In this document: piece by piece, positions 10,938 to 31,907 of the stretch
Position numbering within the stretch: position 1 is the stretch's first letter
Layout: every line of letters begins with the position of its first letter
Assembly (NCBI GenBank): GCA_026416035.1
Contig: JAOAFY010000003.1
Location: forward strand, 1 to 53,937
Source: Coriobacteriia bacterium
Lineage (GTDB): Bacteria > Actinomycetota > Coriobacteriia > Anaerosomatales > Anaerosomataceae
Direction of reading: 5' to 3'
Length of the DNA: 53,937 nucleotides
Translations under genes and position numbers: made by a program
Notes under the pieces: model-generated
The model's input: the letters and a program-made list of their open reading frames with translations, nothing else
Databases searched by the model: none
Told to the model about the DNA's origin: nothing

Positions 10938-11588
10938 CTAGACGCGCTCAGACCCGTCGGCCCGCGACAGGTAGTACAGCGTGTGGAGCAGCTCGAGCAC
11001 CGGGTCCGTGTTGTGGAGCGTGACCCCCTCGGGCACGTGGACGAGCGCCGGGGTGTAGTTCAAGATGATGCGCACCCCGGCGCTGCACACCAGGTCCGCC
11101 GCCGCCTGTGCCGCCTCCGGAGGAACTGCGAGCACCGCAATCCGGATGTTTTGGTCCGCCACTACCTGGGGCAGCTCGTCGACGTGCCGCACGATCACGT
11201 CGCCGATCCGCTTGCCGACTTTCTGCGGGTCGTTGTCGAAGACCGCCGTGACGTAGAACCCGTGCTGCCTCAGCCCGTCGTACCCCGCGATGGCCGATCC
11301 GAGATTCCCGGCGCCGACCAGAGCGAGGCGATGCACATGATCGGCTCCCAGGATTCGCTGGATGCTGTCGACGAGCAGTGCGATGTCGTATCCGACGCCG
11401 CGCTTCCCGAACGAGCCGAAGTGCGTCAGGTCGCGGCGGATCTGGGCCGGGTTGACACCGGTGAGCTCCCCGAGACGCGCAGACGACACAGTCGTCCGAC
11501 CCTCGTGACGGAGCTGGATCAGTGCACCGAGGTAGACGGGCAAGCGTTCGACGACGCCAGCCGGGATGTCGTGCTGCGTACCGGTCAT
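10938..11588 (-). CDS. rex: Redox-sensing transcriptional repressor Rex
   Basis: ERLPVYL, SSARLGE..G..PAQIRRDL, FGKRGVGY, VGAGNLG Rossmann, LNYTP. Confidence 0.96.
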   Translation of the reverse strand: MTGTQHDIPAGVVERLPVYLGALIQLRHEGRTTVSSARLGELTGVNPAQIRRDLTHFGSFGKRGVGYDIALLVDSIQRILGADHVHRLALVGAGNLGSAIAGYDGLRQHGFYVTAVFDNDPQKVGKRIGDVIVRHVDELPQVVADQNIRIAVLAVPPEAAQAAADLVCSAGVRIILNYTPALVHVPEGVTLHNTDPVLELLHTLYYLSRADGSERV

Positions 11589-11614: not shown

Positions 11615-11641
11615 GACATTGTTACTCAGAGTCACAATGTC
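11615..11641. promoter_or_regulatory. 13-1-13 inverted repeat upstream of rex (candidate autoregulatory operator)
   Basis: GACATTGTTACTC-A-GAGTCACAATGTC, one mismatch; core TTGT-N11-ACAA; next to -10-like TACGAT (11599-11604, minus). Confidence 0.7.
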
Positions 11642-16018: not shown

Positions 16019-16276
16019 TCAGCCCTGGGACTGCGTGTCGACGGGGAATATCGCCGTGATGGCGTCCCTGGCCACTGCGATGAACTCAGGCGCCGCGATC
16101 AGCGCGCCGTCGCAGACGTTGTAGATGCGCGCGCTCGTCAGTGCGTAGAAGTCCTTGCCCTTCGCATTCAGAGAATCAGTGAGCCGGCTGCCCTCGAGGA
16201 CGTACATGTCGCCCTCGATGCGATGGTCCTTGGTGATGATCATGACCCGAAGGGTGTCCTTCTTCGTGTACACCAT
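16019..16276 (-). CDS. Small conserved hypothetical protein (DUF6812-like)
   Basis: RVMIITKDHRIEGDMYV..GSRLTDSLN...FYALTSARIY pattern recalled for this family; GGGGAG RBS. Family name from memory. Confidence 0.65.
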   Translation of the reverse strand: MVYTKKDTLRVMIITKDHRIEGDMYVLEGSRLTDSLNAKGKDFYALTSARIYNVCDGALIAAPEFIAVARDAITAIFPVDTQSQG

Positions 16277-16342
16277 GGCATCTCCCCTGTCCGCCGCCCA
16301 CGCCATCATACGCCCCAGGTTGGGACGCAACAAGCAACGACA

Positions 16343-17020
16343 TCAGCCGATCGCATGCTCCAGCCACGACCGGAGCAAAGCGGCGCCCACGAGCTCAAGC
16401 CCGGTCAAGACCGCTGCAACCGCCACCTGCGGAGCGAGCGAGCGCACGCTTGAAGCCGACCGTTCGAACGCCGGTATCAGGCTGACGAACACGAGGTTCA
16501 CCACAGCGAGGGTCGCCAGGATCGCCACGCTCACGAGAAGCGGGAACATCACTCCAGCACGGGGCAACAACCAGTAGATGGCCGCGAAGGCGAGCGGCAG
16601 ACCAGCAAGCCACGCCGCCGCCTTCCTTCCCTCCAGCAGGCGGACATCGTCCCATCTCCGCCACAGCTGCCCATGGAGCATGGGGACGACCACGAGGGGC
16701 ATCGCCCATCCCGCAGCCAGGCCGGTCGCTAGCCGGATCGCGTTCGTCGTCTCGCGTACGCCCGCGTACGAGGTCACTCCGTCGACGACCATGGCGAGCA
16801 CCCCGGCCGAACCTGCGACGAGGAGCCATGGTGCAGGCAACCCTGCAGGCCGTCGGCCCCGTTCCAGGGCAGCGATGAGCGCGAGCGAGAGAGCGAACCC
16901 GGCGTAGATCCCGGTATCTCTGGCGCACACAGGCACCTGCCAGCCGCCCGCGAAGAAGGATCGGGATGGGAGCTGGTGGCACAGGCCATAGCCCAGCCAG
17001 TGGAAGAACGACCCGAGCAA
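16343..17020 (-). CDS. DUF2085-like membrane protein
   Basis: CHQLPSRSF and PVCARDTGIY motifs, several TM helices; TTG start. Confidence 0.82.
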   Translation of the reverse strand: MLGSFFHWLGYGLCHQLPSRSFFAGGWQVPVCARDTGIYAGFALSLALIAALERGRRPAGLPAPWLLVAGSAGVLAMVVDGVTSYAGVRETTNAIRLATGLAAGWAMPLVVVPMLHGQLWRRWDDVRLLEGRKAAAWLAGLPLAFAAIYWLLPRAGVMFPLLVSVAILATLAVVNLVFVSLIPAFERSASSVRSLAPQVAVAAVLTGLELVGAALLRSWLEHAIG

Positions 17021-17081: not shown

Positions 17082-17158
17082 TGGTCGGGATGGCGGGATT
17101 TGAACCCACGACCTCTGCGTCCCGAACGCAGCGCTCTACCAAGCTGAGCCACATCCCG
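17082..17158 (-). tRNA. tRNA-Pro (anticodon CGG)
   Basis: Reverse complement CGGGATGTGGCTCAGCTTGGTAGAGCGCTGCGTTCGGGACGCAGAGGTCGTGGGTTCAAATCCCGCCATCCCGACCA folds as a cloverleaf with TTCAA T-loop and encoded CCA. Confidence 0.97.
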
Positions 17159-17250: not shown

Positions 17251-19326
17251 CTAGTGAATCAGCCGCACGTGGCAGTACGAGCACTCGGTCGGCTTGTGGC
17301 AGTCGAAGCAGGGCTCTGCGCCGGTCTTCTTGACGATGTTCGGGTGATACGTCCGCCACGCCTGGTTGGCCACCGCACCCTTGTGATGGCAGTTGTCGCA
17401 GAAGTACTGGCTGTGGCAGTTGACGCACACTGGCTTCGTCAGCTTCTTGGCCTGGAAGTCGGCCTTGTGGGTGTCCTTGAAGTCGGCCGGATGCGGCATC
17501 GGCAGCTTGTGGCAGTTCTTGCAGAACTTGGCCTCCACACCGCCCACCCCGTGGCAGTAGTCGCAGCTGTCGGTCTGCGCCTTGTAGGCAGCCGAGTGCT
17601 TCGCTGCCTTGCCGAGCGCAAGGTTGCGCGTCCAGTCAGCAGCCTTGTGCGAAGCTGGCAGCGCCTTGAGCTTCGTGTGGCAGTCCACGCAGAACTGCTT
17701 GTTCTCGTGGCACTTCTCGAAGCACGGTCCAGTGCCCTTGGCGGCCACAGCCTTCGGGTGCTGCTGCTGCCATGGCACGCCGTTGATGGCGCCAGCGTGA
17801 TGGCAGTCGGAGCAGACCTCCTTGAAAGTGTGGCAGTTGGCGCACAGCTGCGGAGTCTTGCGGCCGGACACGTGGTTCTTCTTGAAGGTGTCAGGGTGCG
17901 GCATCTCCATGCCGTGGCAGCCCTTGCAGAACTTGGCGTTCGTACCGCCTGGGCCGTGGCACACGTCGCAGCTGTCGATCGCCTTCATCGCAGACAGCGC
18001 GTGCTTGCCGGACGGCTCAGCCGCCTTCTCGCCGTACTTGGTCACGGTCAGCCTGTCGCGCAGCCACTTCGCATCCTTGTGCGAGCTCGGCAGGGGCTTG
18101 AGCCTGGTGTGGCACTCCACGCAGAACTTCTGATCGTGGCACGCGCCGAGGCACGGGCTCACGCCGTTCGTCGTGACCGCCTTGGCATGCTGCGTCCTCC
18201 AGGCCACCTTCGGATCGAACTTCCAGTTGACCTTCGTGCCGTGATGGCACTCGTTGCAGAACTGGTAGTTCGTCTTCTTGACCTGGTGGCACAGGTCGCA
18301 CTTGTCCATCTTCGTCTTAGCGACCTGCGGGTGCGTCTTCTCTTTGAATTCGGCCGGGTGCGGCATCTCCATGCCGTGGCAGCCCATGCAGAAGGTCGCC
18401 TTCACGTGGCAGGTGGCGCAGTAGTCGACCTTGTCGACTGCGACCAGGTGCAGCCCCTCGCCTTCGGCGCCCTCTTCAGCCTTCTCGCCCTCCGCGGCCT
18501 TCTCGCCCTCCGCGGCCTCTCCGCCTTCAGACGCTTCGGCTTCTCCCTCGACAGGCTTGCCGGTCGAGCGATCCACCTTGGCCATGGCAAGCTTCGCGTG
18601 GCCCTTCGGGTAGAAGTCCTTGGCCTTGTGCGACGGCGGCTTCAGATCGAAGTCGGCAGGATGGCATGCCGAGCACTTGCCCGGCGCCTTGATGCCGCCC
18701 GCGGGCGGCTCCGCCGTGAGCGTGTGGCACCGGAAGCACGCGGTCATCGACATGAAGTTCTGGTGCTTGACGCTCTTCTTCTTGGTCTTCGGGTCGGTCA
18801 GGACCGGTTCCCAGTCGCCGCTCTCGTTGTGAGCGACACGGTTGTGGCACGCGGTGCAGTGGATCTCCTTCTTCTCGTGCGCCTCGTGGTCGATCTTGAT
18901 CCCGGGGCTCGGGGTCACCTTGCGCGTGGCGAGGTTGTGGCACTGCGTGCACTGCCGCGAACCCATCTCCTCGGTGTTCATCGCGAGGTGGCTGTCGGGG
19001 TTCAGCGGAAGCTCGAAGTTGTTCGTCACGGTCAGCACGAGCTCGCCGAGCGCCTTGGCCTTCTTCAGGGTGAACGTGATGGGATCGGAGTTGACCGGCT
19101 CGTGGCACGACATGCACGAGACCATGTTGTGGGACGAACGGTCGTACGCGGCGATGGAGTCATCCTGGACCTTGTGGCACACGCTGGCGCAGAACCAGTA
19201 GGTCGACGTCGCGCCAAACGCGATCACGATGAACGCTGCAAGCGCCAGGACGACGACGCCGGTCCAGATGACGTACCGTGGTCGCCGCACCGGATCTTTG
19301 AACCCGGCCAGTGAGATCTTCGCCAT
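17251..19326 (-). CDS. Membrane-anchored 24-heme cytochrome c (NapC/NirT-like head + three hexaheme modules)
   Basis: Counted 21 CxxCH + 3 CX3CH (CASVCH, CLGACH, CFEKCH); one N-terminal TM helix followed by TYWFC..CH..Y..S.H...C.SCH as in NapC/NirT; RBS GAGGAG spacing favours ATG 19326 over 19332. Confidence 0.93.
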   Translation of the reverse strand: MAKISLAGFKDPVRRPRYVIWTGVVVLALAAFIVIAFGATSTYWFCASVCHKVQDDSIAAYDRSSHNMVSCMSCHEPVNSDPITFTLKKAKALGELVLTVTNNFELPLNPDSHLAMNTEEMGSRQCTQCHNLATRKVTPSPGIKIDHEAHEKKEIHCTACHNRVAHNESGDWEPVLTDPKTKKKSVKHQNFMSMTACFRCHTLTAEPPAGGIKAPGKCSACHPADFDLKPPSHKAKDFYPKGHAKLAMAKVDRSTGKPVEGEAEASEGGEAAEGEKAAEGEKAEEGAEGEGLHLVAVDKVDYCATCHVKATFCMGCHGMEMPHPAEFKEKTHPQVAKTKMDKCDLCHQVKKTNYQFCNECHHGTKVNWKFDPKVAWRTQHAKAVTTNGVSPCLGACHDQKFCVECHTRLKPLPSSHKDAKWLRDRLTVTKYGEKAAEPSGKHALSAMKAIDSCDVCHGPGGTNAKFCKGCHGMEMPHPDTFKKNHVSGRKTPQLCANCHTFKEVCSDCHHAGAINGVPWQQQHPKAVAAKGTGPCFEKCHENKQFCVDCHTKLKALPASHKAADWTRNLALGKAAKHSAAYKAQTDSCDYCHGVGGVEAKFCKNCHKLPMPHPADFKDTHKADFQAKKLTKPVCVNCHSQYFCDNCHHKGAVANQAWRTYHPNIVKKTGAEPCFDCHKPTECSYCHVRLIH
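17894..18385. repeat. 30-bp exact direct repeat inside the cytochrome gene (17894-17923 and 18356-18385)
   Basis: gggtgcggcatctccatgccgtggcagccc occurs twice, 462 bp apart, in the GCHGMEMPHP segment of modules 1 and 2. Confidence 0.9.
18479..18518. repeat. 18-bp tandem repeat encoding AEGEKA in the acidic linker
   Basis: gccttctcgccctccgcg twice plus a partial copy. Confidence 0.85.
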
Positions 19327-19404
19327 ACGCATCTCTCCTCGCTCGTCCCGGATCTCAGCGTCGCACGCGACAGAAGCGGCCCCTCGGCCCGCTGCATGCG
19401 CCTA

Positions 19405-19438
19405 ACTGTATCCGAACCCTTGTGACGCGACAATACAA
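19405..19438 (-). promoter_or_regulatory. Promoter of the cytochrome gene with overlapping TTGT-N11-ACAA site
   Basis: TTGTCG(19433-19428)-N17-TACAGT(19410-19405); TTGTGACGCGACAATACAA at 19420-19438 covers the -35. Confidence 0.55.
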
Positions 19439-19502: not shown

Positions 19503-20648
19503 TCACTTCACGGCCATGGAATCGACGAGGCGGTTCAGCTCCGTGATCGCAGCCGCGACCTGGCGAGCCGCCTCGGCGGCCTGCTGCGAGACCGATGCGA
19601 TCTCCTTCATGGAGAGCACGACCTGGTCAGACGCGCTTCGCTGCTGCTGGGTCGCGATGGATATCTGCTTGGCTGCGTCGGTCGTCTCCTCGACTTGCGC
19701 CACGATGCGCTCGAGCGCGTCTTGCGTGCTTTCTGCCAGCCGCTTGCCCTCGTTCACCTTGTTCGCTGCCTTCTCCGTCTGCATGATGAGCGCCGAGGTC
19801 GATGCCTGGATCTCTCGCACGACCCTGCCAATCTCCTGGGTGGACTCGGTCACCGACTCGGCAAGCTTGCGAATCTCCTCGGCCACGACGGAGAATCCTT
19901 TCCCTGCTTCGCCCGCACGAGCGGCCTCGATGGCAGCGTTGAGCGCGAGGATCTTCGTCTGCTCGGCGATCTCGTCGATGATGGTGAGCACTCTGCCGAT
20001 CTCTTGGCTGCGCTCCCCCAGGGCGAGGATGCGGTCCGAGGACTGCTGGGTCGTCAGGCGGATCTCCTCGATGCCCTCAGCCGTATCGTGGACCGCCTGC
20101 AACCCTTCTTCGGCGCTCGCGAGCGTCCGCTCTGCGATGCGCACGACGGCGGACGAGTTTTCGGCTATCTGGCTGGAGGTCTGGGCAAGTTCCTCGACCG
20201 TCGCCGATGTCTCGGTCACCGCAGCAGCCTGCTCGGCAGCTCCGCTCGCCTGCTCCTCGGTCGCCGCCAGGACTTGCGCCGTGAGTGCCCGGATGTTCGT
20301 CGTCATCGCACGGATCTGATCCAGCAGCGTCGAGATGTTCGAGAACACCCGGTCTGCCTCGGAGGCCAGACCCTCAAGCCCCTTCGCATCGTGCACAGAG
20401 ATACCAAGCGTGCGTCCGGCTTTAGCCAACACCTCCCTGAACGGACGCTCGGAGATACGCTGCGCCAGGAAGTGGCACCCGATGCCCAGACCTACCCCCG
20501 CCCCAACACAGGCCAGCACGAAGAGAGCCAGCGCTATGCTGCTCTTCGGAGTGACGAAGAGCAGTGCGAAAGGCGGGAACAGAAGACCGACGACCATTCC
20601 CGCCACGACGAACGCGTACAGCTCCCGCTTCTTCACGCCGTTGCTCAT
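19503..20648 (-). CDS. Methyl-accepting chemotaxis protein, two TM helices, no extracellular sensor domain
   Basis: [38 protein letters not shown] signalling hairpin; start set at MSNGVKKR. Confidence 0.93.
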
Positions 20649-20756
20649 GTGCAACCCCGTTCCGCTGCGACTCCTCCGAACCGTGGCCGCCCCTCGCCCC
20701 GTTCGGACACATACTAGCAATTAGGGCGCTGCACCGCACTGGCAGCCTCAACACGC

Positions 20757-30627: not shown

Positions 30628-30698
30628 GGCTCCTCACCAGATGAACGCGACCTCGTGCAGTACGAGGATACCGCGTTTCGACGCCGCTGGCACGCAGC

Positions 30699-31907
30699 CT
30701 AGGCGTGACGAAGCGGTTCCTGCGTCCAACCCGCGATGGACACGCACACCATCGAGGTGCCGATCACGGCAAGGGACGCAGGGACCCCGATCCGCTGCAC
30801 GAGGATGCCTGCCAGCACGTAGCCAGTCGCAAGCGCTGCCCCAGCGAGCATCCTCTGGACGGCGTAGATCCTGCCCAGGTGGCGTGCGGAAGCGTGCGCC
30901 TGCACCATGGCGCGCGCCGGCACGTAGAACCACATGTTCGCGAAGCCCACGAGAAAGACGAACGGCAGCGCCATGACCAGGCTCCTGGAGGTCGCCGTCG
31001 CAGCGATGAACACGCCAGCAGCAGCCAGGCCGATGATGTACTTGATGCCGGAACGCTCTGATCCGCTCTGACCTACAGCGACGCTTCCGACGAGCAAGCC
31101 GACCGTGATCGCAGCGTCGAGCGCCGCCAGCCCGACGGCTCGACCATCCACCGGTCCTGAGCCGAAGTGCTTGAGCGCAAGACCATGCATGGCCGTGTTC
31201 GCCGCAGCGATGGGCACTGCAGCGAGGGCATACGTCGCGGTAAGCGGTCGGATCAGCGCGTTGTCACGAATGCCCCGGAGGCCATCGGCGATCTGTGCGA
31301 GCATCGGCCCGGCCGCCGATGCCTCACCAGCCGCCCGTCGAGGTACCCGCATGCTGGCGATGACCAGCGCCGAGACCGCGAAGGTGGAGGCGTCGATGAA
31401 GAAGGCGTTCGACGCACCGAGCCTCGCGACCAGGCCCGCGCCAATGGCCAGACCAGCAATCTCCGACACGGACATCGTGGCTTGGTCCAGCGAGTTCGCT
31501 GCCACTAGGTCGTCTTCCGCGACGATCTCTGGGACGAGCGAGAATCGCGCCGGCTCGAAGAACAGCGAGGCAGTCGAAACGACGAAAGCAGCGGCGTAGA
31601 AGAACGCGATGTTGCGCTGCGCCAGGAAGGGGATCGCGCACACGAGCACAGCTCGGATGACGTCCGCTCCCACCATGACCCGCTTGCGGTCCGACCTGTC
31701 TACCGCAGCACCGATGGGAAGAGCGAACAGCACCGCCGGGAGGGTAGTGACCGCCAGCATCGCGCCGACGTGGACCACCGAACCTGTGAGCTTGTAGACG
31801 AGGATGCTTGCGCCGATCTGATGGATCTTGTCTCCGAGCACCGAGACAAGCTGAGCGATCCACAACGCTCGATACTGCCGGCTCCTGAGCGGCTGGATGA
31901 TGCGCAC
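30699..31907 (-). CDS. MFS transporter (DHA3/macrolide-efflux-like)
   Basis: About 12 TM helices, GAAVDRSDRKRVMV motif A, LVAANSL. Confidence 0.9.
   Translation of the reverse strand: MRIIQPLRSRQYRALWIAQLVSVLGDKIHQIGASILVYKLTGSVVHVGAMLAVTTLPAVLFALPIGAAVDRSDRKRVMVGADVIRAVLVCAIPFLAQRNIAFFYAAAFVVSTASLFFEPARFSLVPEIVAEDDLVAANSLDQATMSVSEIAGLAIGAGLVARLGASNAFFIDASTFAVSALVIASMRVPRRAAGEASAAGPMLAQIADGLRGIRDNALIRPLTATYALAAVPIAAANTAMHGLALKHFGSGPVDGRAVGLAALDAAITVGLLVGSVAVGQSGSERSGIKYIIGLAAAGVFIAATATSRSLVMALPFVFLVGFANMWFYVPARAMVQAHASARHLGRIYAVQRMLAGAALATGYVLAGILVQRIGVPASLAVIGTSMVCVSIAGWTQEPLRHA

Follow-up and report, generated by a model that had tools for sequence, protein, structure and literature searches.

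The window analysed here comprises positions 1 to 53,937 (53,937 nt) of contig JAOAFY010000003.1 (assembly GCA_026416035.1), part of a metagenome-assembled genome (MAG) of a Coriobacteriia bacterium of the order Anaerosomatales. It carries a complete gene for a multihaem c-type cytochrome, with a gene for an MCP-signalling-domain protein upstream and a tRNA-Pro and a gene for a DUF2085 membrane protein downstream (Table 1). The GC content at third codon positions of the cytochrome gene is 0.90 and its final sense codon is nt 17254-17256. Scanning of the 693-amino acid (aa) protein for haem motifs gave 24 sites. Of these, 21 are CXXCH; the other three are CX3CH, namely CASVCH (aa 48), CLGACH (aa 394) and CFEKCH (aa 537). 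The gene product is a membrane-anchored cytochrome of the NapC/NirT superfamily, in which a six-haem head is followed by a linker and by three copies of a hexahaem module, each of them made of three dihaem sub-repeats.

Table 1. Features of the cytochrome gene and its surroundings (nucleotide positions refer to the window, aa positions to the 693-aa protein; TM, transmembrane; ORF, open reading frame)
Feature	Position	Strand	Remarks
MCP-signalling-domain protein, upstream neighbour	19503..20720	-	syntenic in 56 of 80 loci
TTGT-N11-ACAA palindrome, candidate Rex-type operator	19420..19438	.	~88-106 nt upstream of the cytochrome ATG
Cytochrome gene, complete, 693 aa, 24-haem c-type	17251..19332	-	single ORF; stop codon 17251-17253
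Basic cytoplasmic stretch, KDPVRRPRY	aa 1-20		before the TM helix; conserved among orthologues
N-terminal signal-anchor TM helix, aa 21-43	19204..19272	-	read from sequence; conserved in orthologues
Six-haem head, aa 44-250	18583..19203	-	NapC/NirT-like tetrahaem and c7-like part; Pfam matches
First motif of the head, aa 48-53	19174-19191	-	CX3CH (CASVCH)
Acidic Glu/Ala/Gly-rich low-complexity linker, aa 251-295	18448..18582	-	AlphaFold2 pLDDT <50 at aa 265-289
Hexahaem module 1, aa 296-443	18004..18447	-	fifth site CX3CH (CLGACH), nt 18136-18153
Hexahaem module 2, aa 444-578	17599..18003	-	fifth site CX3CH (CFEKCH), nt 17707-17724
Hexahaem module 3, aa 579-693	17254..17598	-	C-terminal end of the protein; fifth site CXXCH (CFDCH), nt 17296-17310
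30-bp exact repeat, module 1 copy	18356..18385	-	encodes GCHGMEMPHP
30-bp exact repeat, module 2 copy	17894..17923	-	encodes GCHGMEMPHP
tRNA-Pro	17082-17158		between the DUF2085 gene and the cytochrome gene
DUF2085 membrane protein, downstream neighbour	16343..17020	-	syntenic in 67 of 80 loci
TTGT-N11-ACAA palindrome, second site	11619-11637		upstream of rex, 10938-11588 (-)

The head was assigned by Pfam. The NapC/NirT profile (PF03264) matched aa 26-169 with 54.6 bits against a gathering cut-off of 24.1, covering profile positions 17-170 of 174. Membership of the cytochrome c3/c7 superfamily was tested with PF14537, PF14522 and PF02085. PF14522 (c7) matched aa 147-224 with 41 bits and PF14537 reached 34 bits, both above cut-off, the best stretch of the latter (aa 400-473) lying across the border between modules 1 and 2. 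These c3/c7 matches are generic and do not define the module. The N-terminal anchor agrees with a helix predicted at aa 17-42 by AlphaFold2 (AF2) and, by the positive-inside rule, the haem domains should lie outside the membrane. The linker that joins the head to the modules varies in length between orthologues (10 to 115 aa) and is predicted to be disordered or flexible in the AF2 model.

The NapC/NirT quinol dehydrogenases NrfH, CymA and NapC (PF03264) likewise have an N-terminal anchor in the membrane and, after it, a tetrahaem domain; the head may have quinol dehydrogenase activity, for which the MqnA/D and UbiA genes of the MAG are indirect evidence. These enzymes differ in having 4-5 haems within ~160-200 aa, whereas the protein described here adds a c7-like pair, the linker and 18 further haems. 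Another protein similar by description is ImcH (GSU3259) of the Geobacter inner membrane, which acts in extracellular electron transfer, has a NapC/NirT-like region and a monocistronic gene and has as its first haem motif an atypical CX3CH beside the membrane (PMC4251993; PMC6295460). Compared in the same way, ImcH differs in having three TM helices, seven haems (CX3CH plus six CXXCH) and no hexahaem modules; ImcH homologues with one TM helix exist (PMC6295460).

An earlier note, made from the letters of the window alone, had described three tandem hexahaem modules at nt 17254-18420. The first Cys of modules 1 to 3 (aa 305, 455 and 590; nt 18420, 17970 and 17565) and the protein end at nt 17254 fit that description exactly, and the fifth sites read CLGACH, CFEKCH and CFDCH in the translated ORF, as had been noted. 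Two elements were absent from it: the third CX3CH, located in the head, and the division of each module into three dihaem sub-repeats (a, b and c), which hhalign relates to one another with probabilities of 93-95.5%. In these modules, a sub-unit reads CxxCH-x4-9-CxxCH, with two distal His after it. Aligned with one another, the three modules are 46-51% identical in aa sequence and 60-66% at the DNA level, and all haem motifs plus four further His, including those of MPHP, CHH and W...H, are invariant among them.

We then searched 1.84e9 representative proteins with a profile of the module (117 positions). Matches were obtained to 1989 proteins at E<=1e-3 and to 74 at E<=1e-30. In four distant proteins (P0124, P0132, P0141 and P0243) the profile fits in overlapping registers ~40-45 aa apart, that is, one dihaem step, which brings out a regular dihaem unit, CxxCH-x4-CxxCH-x3-5-P.(S)H-xxW-xxxHG. 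These proteins also start with a TM helix, a NapC/NirT domain and a c7 domain, and hold 26-32 haems. The Pfam family Paired_CXXCH_1 (PF09699) resembles the sub-repeat in being a unit of ~40 aa with two CXXCH that occurs in tandem; however, it scored 16.9 and 15.8 bits on this gene, below its cut-off of 20.6, which other genes of the genome exceed, and its register differs from that of the module sub-units, so that it was rejected as the identity of the sub-repeat.

Among Protein Data Bank (PDB) sequences, the whole protein had no phmmer match at E<=1, and the best hit of the module profile, at E 0.064, was a non-cytochrome. Foldseek searches of the PDB with the AF2 models of the module and of the full protein gave no matches; as the NapC/NirT head was missed too, the method was insensitive here and this null result is no evidence of a new fold. 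PDB entry 3OV0, a modular "nanowire" cytochrome of the GSU1996 type with tandem c7-type trihaem domains, did not match the module profile at E<=10. Cytochromes of that type also build a long haem chain from small multihaem modules in tandem, with a copy number that varies among paralogues, but they are soluble and their unit is a trihaem c7 domain, while the unit described here is a hexahaem module of three dihaem sub-units carried on a membrane head. Overall, neither the Pfam and NCBIfam collections nor the PDB hold an entry for the hexahaem module. The previous impression of an unrecognised family was thus right for the module; the protein as a whole belongs to the NapC/NirT superfamily and has an orthologue with published expression data.

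To analyse conservation, we aligned 120 full-length homologues (49-87% identity, 610-768 aa) with the protein of the window, giving a set of 121 orthologues. The homologues come mostly from Coriobacteriia MAGs, where they are annotated either as "NapC/NirT family cytochrome c" or as "cytochrome c3 family protein". Results showed that Cys and His of all 24 haem motifs, the three CX3CH included, are essentially invariant. Outside the motifs, 23 His and Met196 are invariant, which provides 24 candidate distal ligands for 24 haems. All 24 sites are thus expected from the alignment to bind haem, nearly all with bis-His coordination. At the fifth site of the modules, 97 of the 121 orthologues have the same spacing pattern as this gene; in the others, CXXCH appears in module 1 (11/121) or module 2 (4/121) and CX3CH in module 3 (7/121), and Cys and His are retained in every orthologue despite the change from two to three intervening residues or the reverse. 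The invariance of Cys and His, the toggling of the spacing in every module and the equal numbers of distal ligands and haems all argue that the CX3CH sites are very probably genuine haem sites, as the earlier note had proposed from their homologous position. There are precedents for such sites: ImcH and some CymA homologues typically have CX3CH beside the membrane anchor (PMC4251993; PMC6295460), and a switch from CXXCH to CX3CH has been inferred for one branch of MtrA (bioRxiv 10.1101/2025.05.29.656830). By comparison of sequences, the alignment thus strongly supports the view that organisms which use System II treat CX3CH as an ordinary and interchangeable site for haem c.

The number of modules proved to be constant over a wide range of relatives. 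Each of the 120 homologues contains 24 motifs, with CXXCHH occurring exactly three times; about 200 orthologues have three modules, and full-length genes were recovered at 80 genome loci (40-90% identity). Within the order Anaerosomatales, the module is present in 109 of 121 genomes and in 69 of 71 genera. The earlier suggestion that the length of the wire could vary between strains did not hold, since all intact loci, across genera, keep three modules and 24 haems and the shorter frames are due to contig ends or to frameshifts in complete genes. Specifically, the apparently headless 18-haem ORFs of G013 and G107 and the apparent two-module ORF of G038 are frameshifts within complete 24-haem genes, and the 518-aa frame of G076 and the 411-aa frame of G015 are cut by contig ends. 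The three frameshifted loci are L112 (G013:C4), L113 (G107:C6) and L115 (G038:C6), two of which share the shift site, just after haem 6; the shifts, all on very large contigs, are likely assembly indels, or possibly the mark of a real slippery site.

Variation in module number is confined to deep lineages and paralogues. One-module relatives with 12 haems are P0265, P0270 (whose cluster includes P0272 = RJQ51966.1) and, in Coriobacteriaceae bacterium EMTCatB1, a paralogue of 395 aa; two-module relatives with 18 haems are P0134, P0136 and P0142. Their heads (aa 1-250) are 51-57% identical to that of the present protein, or 38% in P0270. P0134 is a positional orthologue, occupying the slot DnaJ ... 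cytochrome-DUF2085-SAM_HAT-HD-PNP-M50-Rex, and P0136 is the tandem neighbour of a three-module gene of 705 aa. Since none of the representatives searched with the module profile outscores the three-module proteins, no four-module form is known. The view of the hexahaem unit as a reusable building block is therefore borne out: the same head occurs with one, two or three copies in different proteins. A NapC/NirT-anchored multihaem wire is a known kind of system; new here are the dihaem-built hexahaem module and the series of 12, 18 and 24 haems, of which we found no earlier description in the literature. The 395-aa paralogue (L124, G019:C1:1288800-1291200) has CTQPCH as the first motif of its head. 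Its counterpart was not found by tblastn in the contigs of the MAG studied here and may sit in the missing ~8% of the genome.

We next considered the genomic context. In the 80 loci, the cytochrome gene belongs to a conserved block, EamA-PBP1A-DnaJ-(DUF1462, ferredoxin)-MCP-cytochrome-DUF2085-DUF6812-orf-SAM_HAT-HD/OB-PNP-M50, and it is a vertically inherited core gene. Its best genome match, with 90% identity, is in EMTCatB1, where the published gene order is 1d0895 (mrcB), 1d0896 (dnaJ), 1d0897 (tar), 1d0898 (multihaem cytochrome) and 1d0899 (membrane protein) (PMC7943316, Table S5). Because this order reproduces the synteny of the cytochrome gene, and with the same neighbours and 24 haem motifs, 1d0898 is the positional orthologue. 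Its expression reached 2347 transcripts per million (TPM) on a current-consuming biocathode, compared to 137 TPM with BrES and 130 TPM at open circuit (PMC7943316), an induction of ~17-fold; TPM values of 1d0899-1d0901, the next genes on the same strand, were also higher on the closed-circuit cathode (PMC7943316). Kobayashi et al. 2021 proposed 1d0898 as a route of cathode electron uptake (PMC7943316); the parts of that report available to us do not describe the head-plus-three-module anatomy, the CX3CH sites or the relatives with other copy numbers. Cultured Anaerosomatales encode 17-18 multihaem cytochromes and reduce Fe(III), one of them, Parvivirga hydrogeniphila, obligately (PMC9686372). 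The MAG that includes the window (1.58 Mb) encodes more than 10 multihaem cytochromes, among them a protein with 37 motifs, and has the menaquinone genes MqnA/D and UbiA.

Taking together architecture, conservation, the copy-number series, synteny and the published expression of the orthologue, the gene product is probably an electron conduit that is linked to the quinone pool, anchored in the membrane and directed through the Gram-positive envelope. As a single-pass, outward-facing cytochrome, it would exchange electrons with membrane quinones through its six-haem NapC/NirT-like head, and the flexible acidic linker would lead from there to the C-terminal 18-haem chain, which might relay electrons over ~15-20 nm through the periplasm-like zone and the wall. 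At the far end, it could meet other cytochromes as partners, or acceptors and donors outside the cell, e.g. Fe(III) minerals or electrodes, and electrons might flow in either direction. Haem would be attached by System II (ResB/CcsA) of the genome. The inferred parts of this scheme are quinol coupling, haem occupancy, the direction in which electrons flow and the physical length of the chain. For comparison, MtrA spans ~8 nm with 10 haems and GSU1996 ~12 nm with 12 haems.

Several observations weigh against such a conduit. Respiratory quinones were undetected in two cultured Anaerosomatales (PMC9686372), which weakens the quinol-coupling step and is its main caveat. The scores of the protein for the NCBIfam equivalogs of NrfH (TIGR03153, 41.1 bits; cut-off 134.2) and NapC (TIGR02161, 25.8 bits; cut-off 310.6) fall far short, and neither a partner reductase nor a surface cytochrome is encoded beside the gene. 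The expression data come from two replicates of a mixed biofilm (PMC7943316). Finally, the AF2 models lack haems and, with pLDDT confidence scores of 83.1 for the full protein and 83.6 for the module, the predicted template modelling score (pTM) of the full model is only 0.51; the length and linearity of the wire are for this reason estimates taken from other cytochromes.

A NapC/NirT head would also serve a protein that stays near the membrane and works as an electron-distribution hub or capacitor, storing electrons or, in the manner of CymA and TorC/NapC, feeding several reductases on the periplasmic side. The gene forms a monocistronic unit and lacks a dedicated partner close by, the many other cytochromes encoded in the genome are possible clients, and a flexible linker would let the 18-haem part swing between them. 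We consider this role unlikely, given that the relatives grow in steps of six haems (12, 18, 24), a pattern that fits a role as spacer or in setting length no less well, and that the orthologue was induced specifically while current flowed from the electrode.

Still less probable is a catalytic multihaem reductase, in which a haem with open coordination, located for example in the head or at one of the CX3CH motifs, would act on a soluble substrate such as nitrite, sulfite or hydroxylamine and the remaining haems would feed the active site. Unusual motifs often mark catalytic haems, e.g. CXXCK in NrfA, and the weak NrfH-like matches of the protein point in the same direction, as does the nitrite respiration that EMTCatB1 is said to encode (PMC7943316). 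However, the protein contains no CXXCK, searches of PDB sequences gave no similarity to NrfA, ONR, HAO or MccA, and the 24 invariant candidates for distal ligands equal the number of haems, leaving little room for an open site. Moreover, CX3CH and CXXCH swap freely at one position, unlike what would be seen in a specialised active site.

The age of the triplication was addressed with the repeat that modules 1 and 2 share and with a tree of the modules. The 30 identical bp reported previously are indeed present (nt 17894-17923 and 18356-18385) and had been taken to suggest a building block expanding by tandem duplication. We simulated the gene 5000 times with the protein fixed and synonymous codons redrawn at the frequencies of this gene, and in 7.6% of the trials the longest exact run reached 30 nt or more (P = 0.076). 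In close relatives, the peptide GCHGMEMPHP is kept in both modules and the DNA there is likewise near-identical. The repeat thus follows from the conservation of a peptide combined with a strong bias in codon use. When 363 modules were placed in a tree, first modules (m1; support 1.0) and third modules (m3; 0.98) each formed a clade holding all 121 orthologues, and the triplication must therefore be older than the whole group, without concerted evolution. On these sequence data the triplication is ancient, and a recent duplication or gene conversion behind the repeat was rejected on the basis of the simulation and the tree.

In the CHGMEMPHP stretch, same-codon pairs between first and second modules (m1/m2) numbered 460 of 612, where the codon usage of the individual genes would predict 397 (77 genes, with kinship ignored), a mild excess that could reflect micro-conversion or position-specific codon selection. 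In one locus (L020) both copies of this stretch use the rare codon GGT. Whole-gene duplication was also seen: G074 (L117, G074:C4:1-6000) has two near-identical three-module copies in tandem, and in L107 a two-module and a three-module copy adjoin. The idea that the array is evolving now, by ongoing gene conversion or recent duplication and with a copy number unstable between strains, can appeal to the exact 30-bp match, the shared-codon excess and these tandem genes, but is largely refuted and hardly credible in view of the simulation, the DNA divergence between modules, the m1 and m3 clades that span all orthologues and the three modules of every intact orthologue.

The three-module form probably arose from a shorter one long ago and has been fixed in the lineage since. 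Module 2 looks like m3 towards its N-end and like m1 towards its C-end, a mosaic which suggests a single unequal crossover in a two-module ancestor, of which it is the expected outcome; different functional constraints on internal and terminal modules could equally yield this pattern. The most likely route would lead from one module to two and then to three, the last step by a single unequal crossover. A broader and tentative proposal is that these proteins are length-graded, single-polypeptide conduits of Gram-positive envelopes: one, two or three modules (12, 18 or 24 haems) behind a quinone-coupled head might set the reach, their number shifting by unequal crossover, and the module might represent an undescribed, dihaem-built haem-packing fold in which CX3CH is tolerated or needed at a sub-unit junction.

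Among Gram-positive bacteria, to our knowledge, the way in which respiratory electrons cross the thick wall has been sketched in no more than a few Firmicutes. The cytochrome described here is a core gene throughout an order of subsurface, hot-spring and electrode-associated Coriobacteriia, and its orthologue is switched on under current supplied by a cathode. A membrane-anchored head whose haem chain grows in steps of six offers a natural experiment on how conduit length is set, and the series of 12, 18 and 24 haems a compact scaffold for bioelectrochemical engineering.

Regarding the regulation of the gene, two TTGT-N11-ACAA palindromes occur in the window, against 0.11 expected. The one on the cytochrome side is conserved near -105 in closer relatives (loci L017, L018, L022 and L027-29). 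With 19 bp, the palindrome is one longer than the canonical Rex box, and its position upstream of the cytochrome gene would fit redox control. Of the neighbours, DUF2085 and DUF6812 (16019-16333, reverse strand) lie downstream of the cytochrome in most loci and may work with it. The members of the order that have been cultured are described as lacking motility, and redox or electrode sensing by the MCP-domain neighbour is conceivable.

Haem-attachment genes of the MAG comprise two ResB/CcsA pairs, three more genes of the CcsA/CcmC family and a CcmE-like gene. Counted over contigs C74, C60, C85, C87 and C78, there are five Cytochrom_C_asm-family genes, two to three ResB-like and one CcmE-like, which is unusually rich for a genome of 1.58 Mb. 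Contig C60 (C60:1-8536) encodes a ResB/CcsA pair together with a cytochrome of 1371 aa (33 CXXCH and four CX4CH) and another of 505 aa (14 CXXCH and one CX3CH), the latter with strong Paired_CXXCH_1 (PF09699) repeats of up to 54 bits. This pair is a candidate for a dedicated maturation system for non-canonical motifs. Elsewhere in the window, ARAGORN called a tRNA-Pro (agg) of 95 nt at 30643-30737 on the reverse strand, with the anticodon at position 38, which is unusually long for a bacterial tRNA; the call may reflect an insertion, an intron or a miscall.

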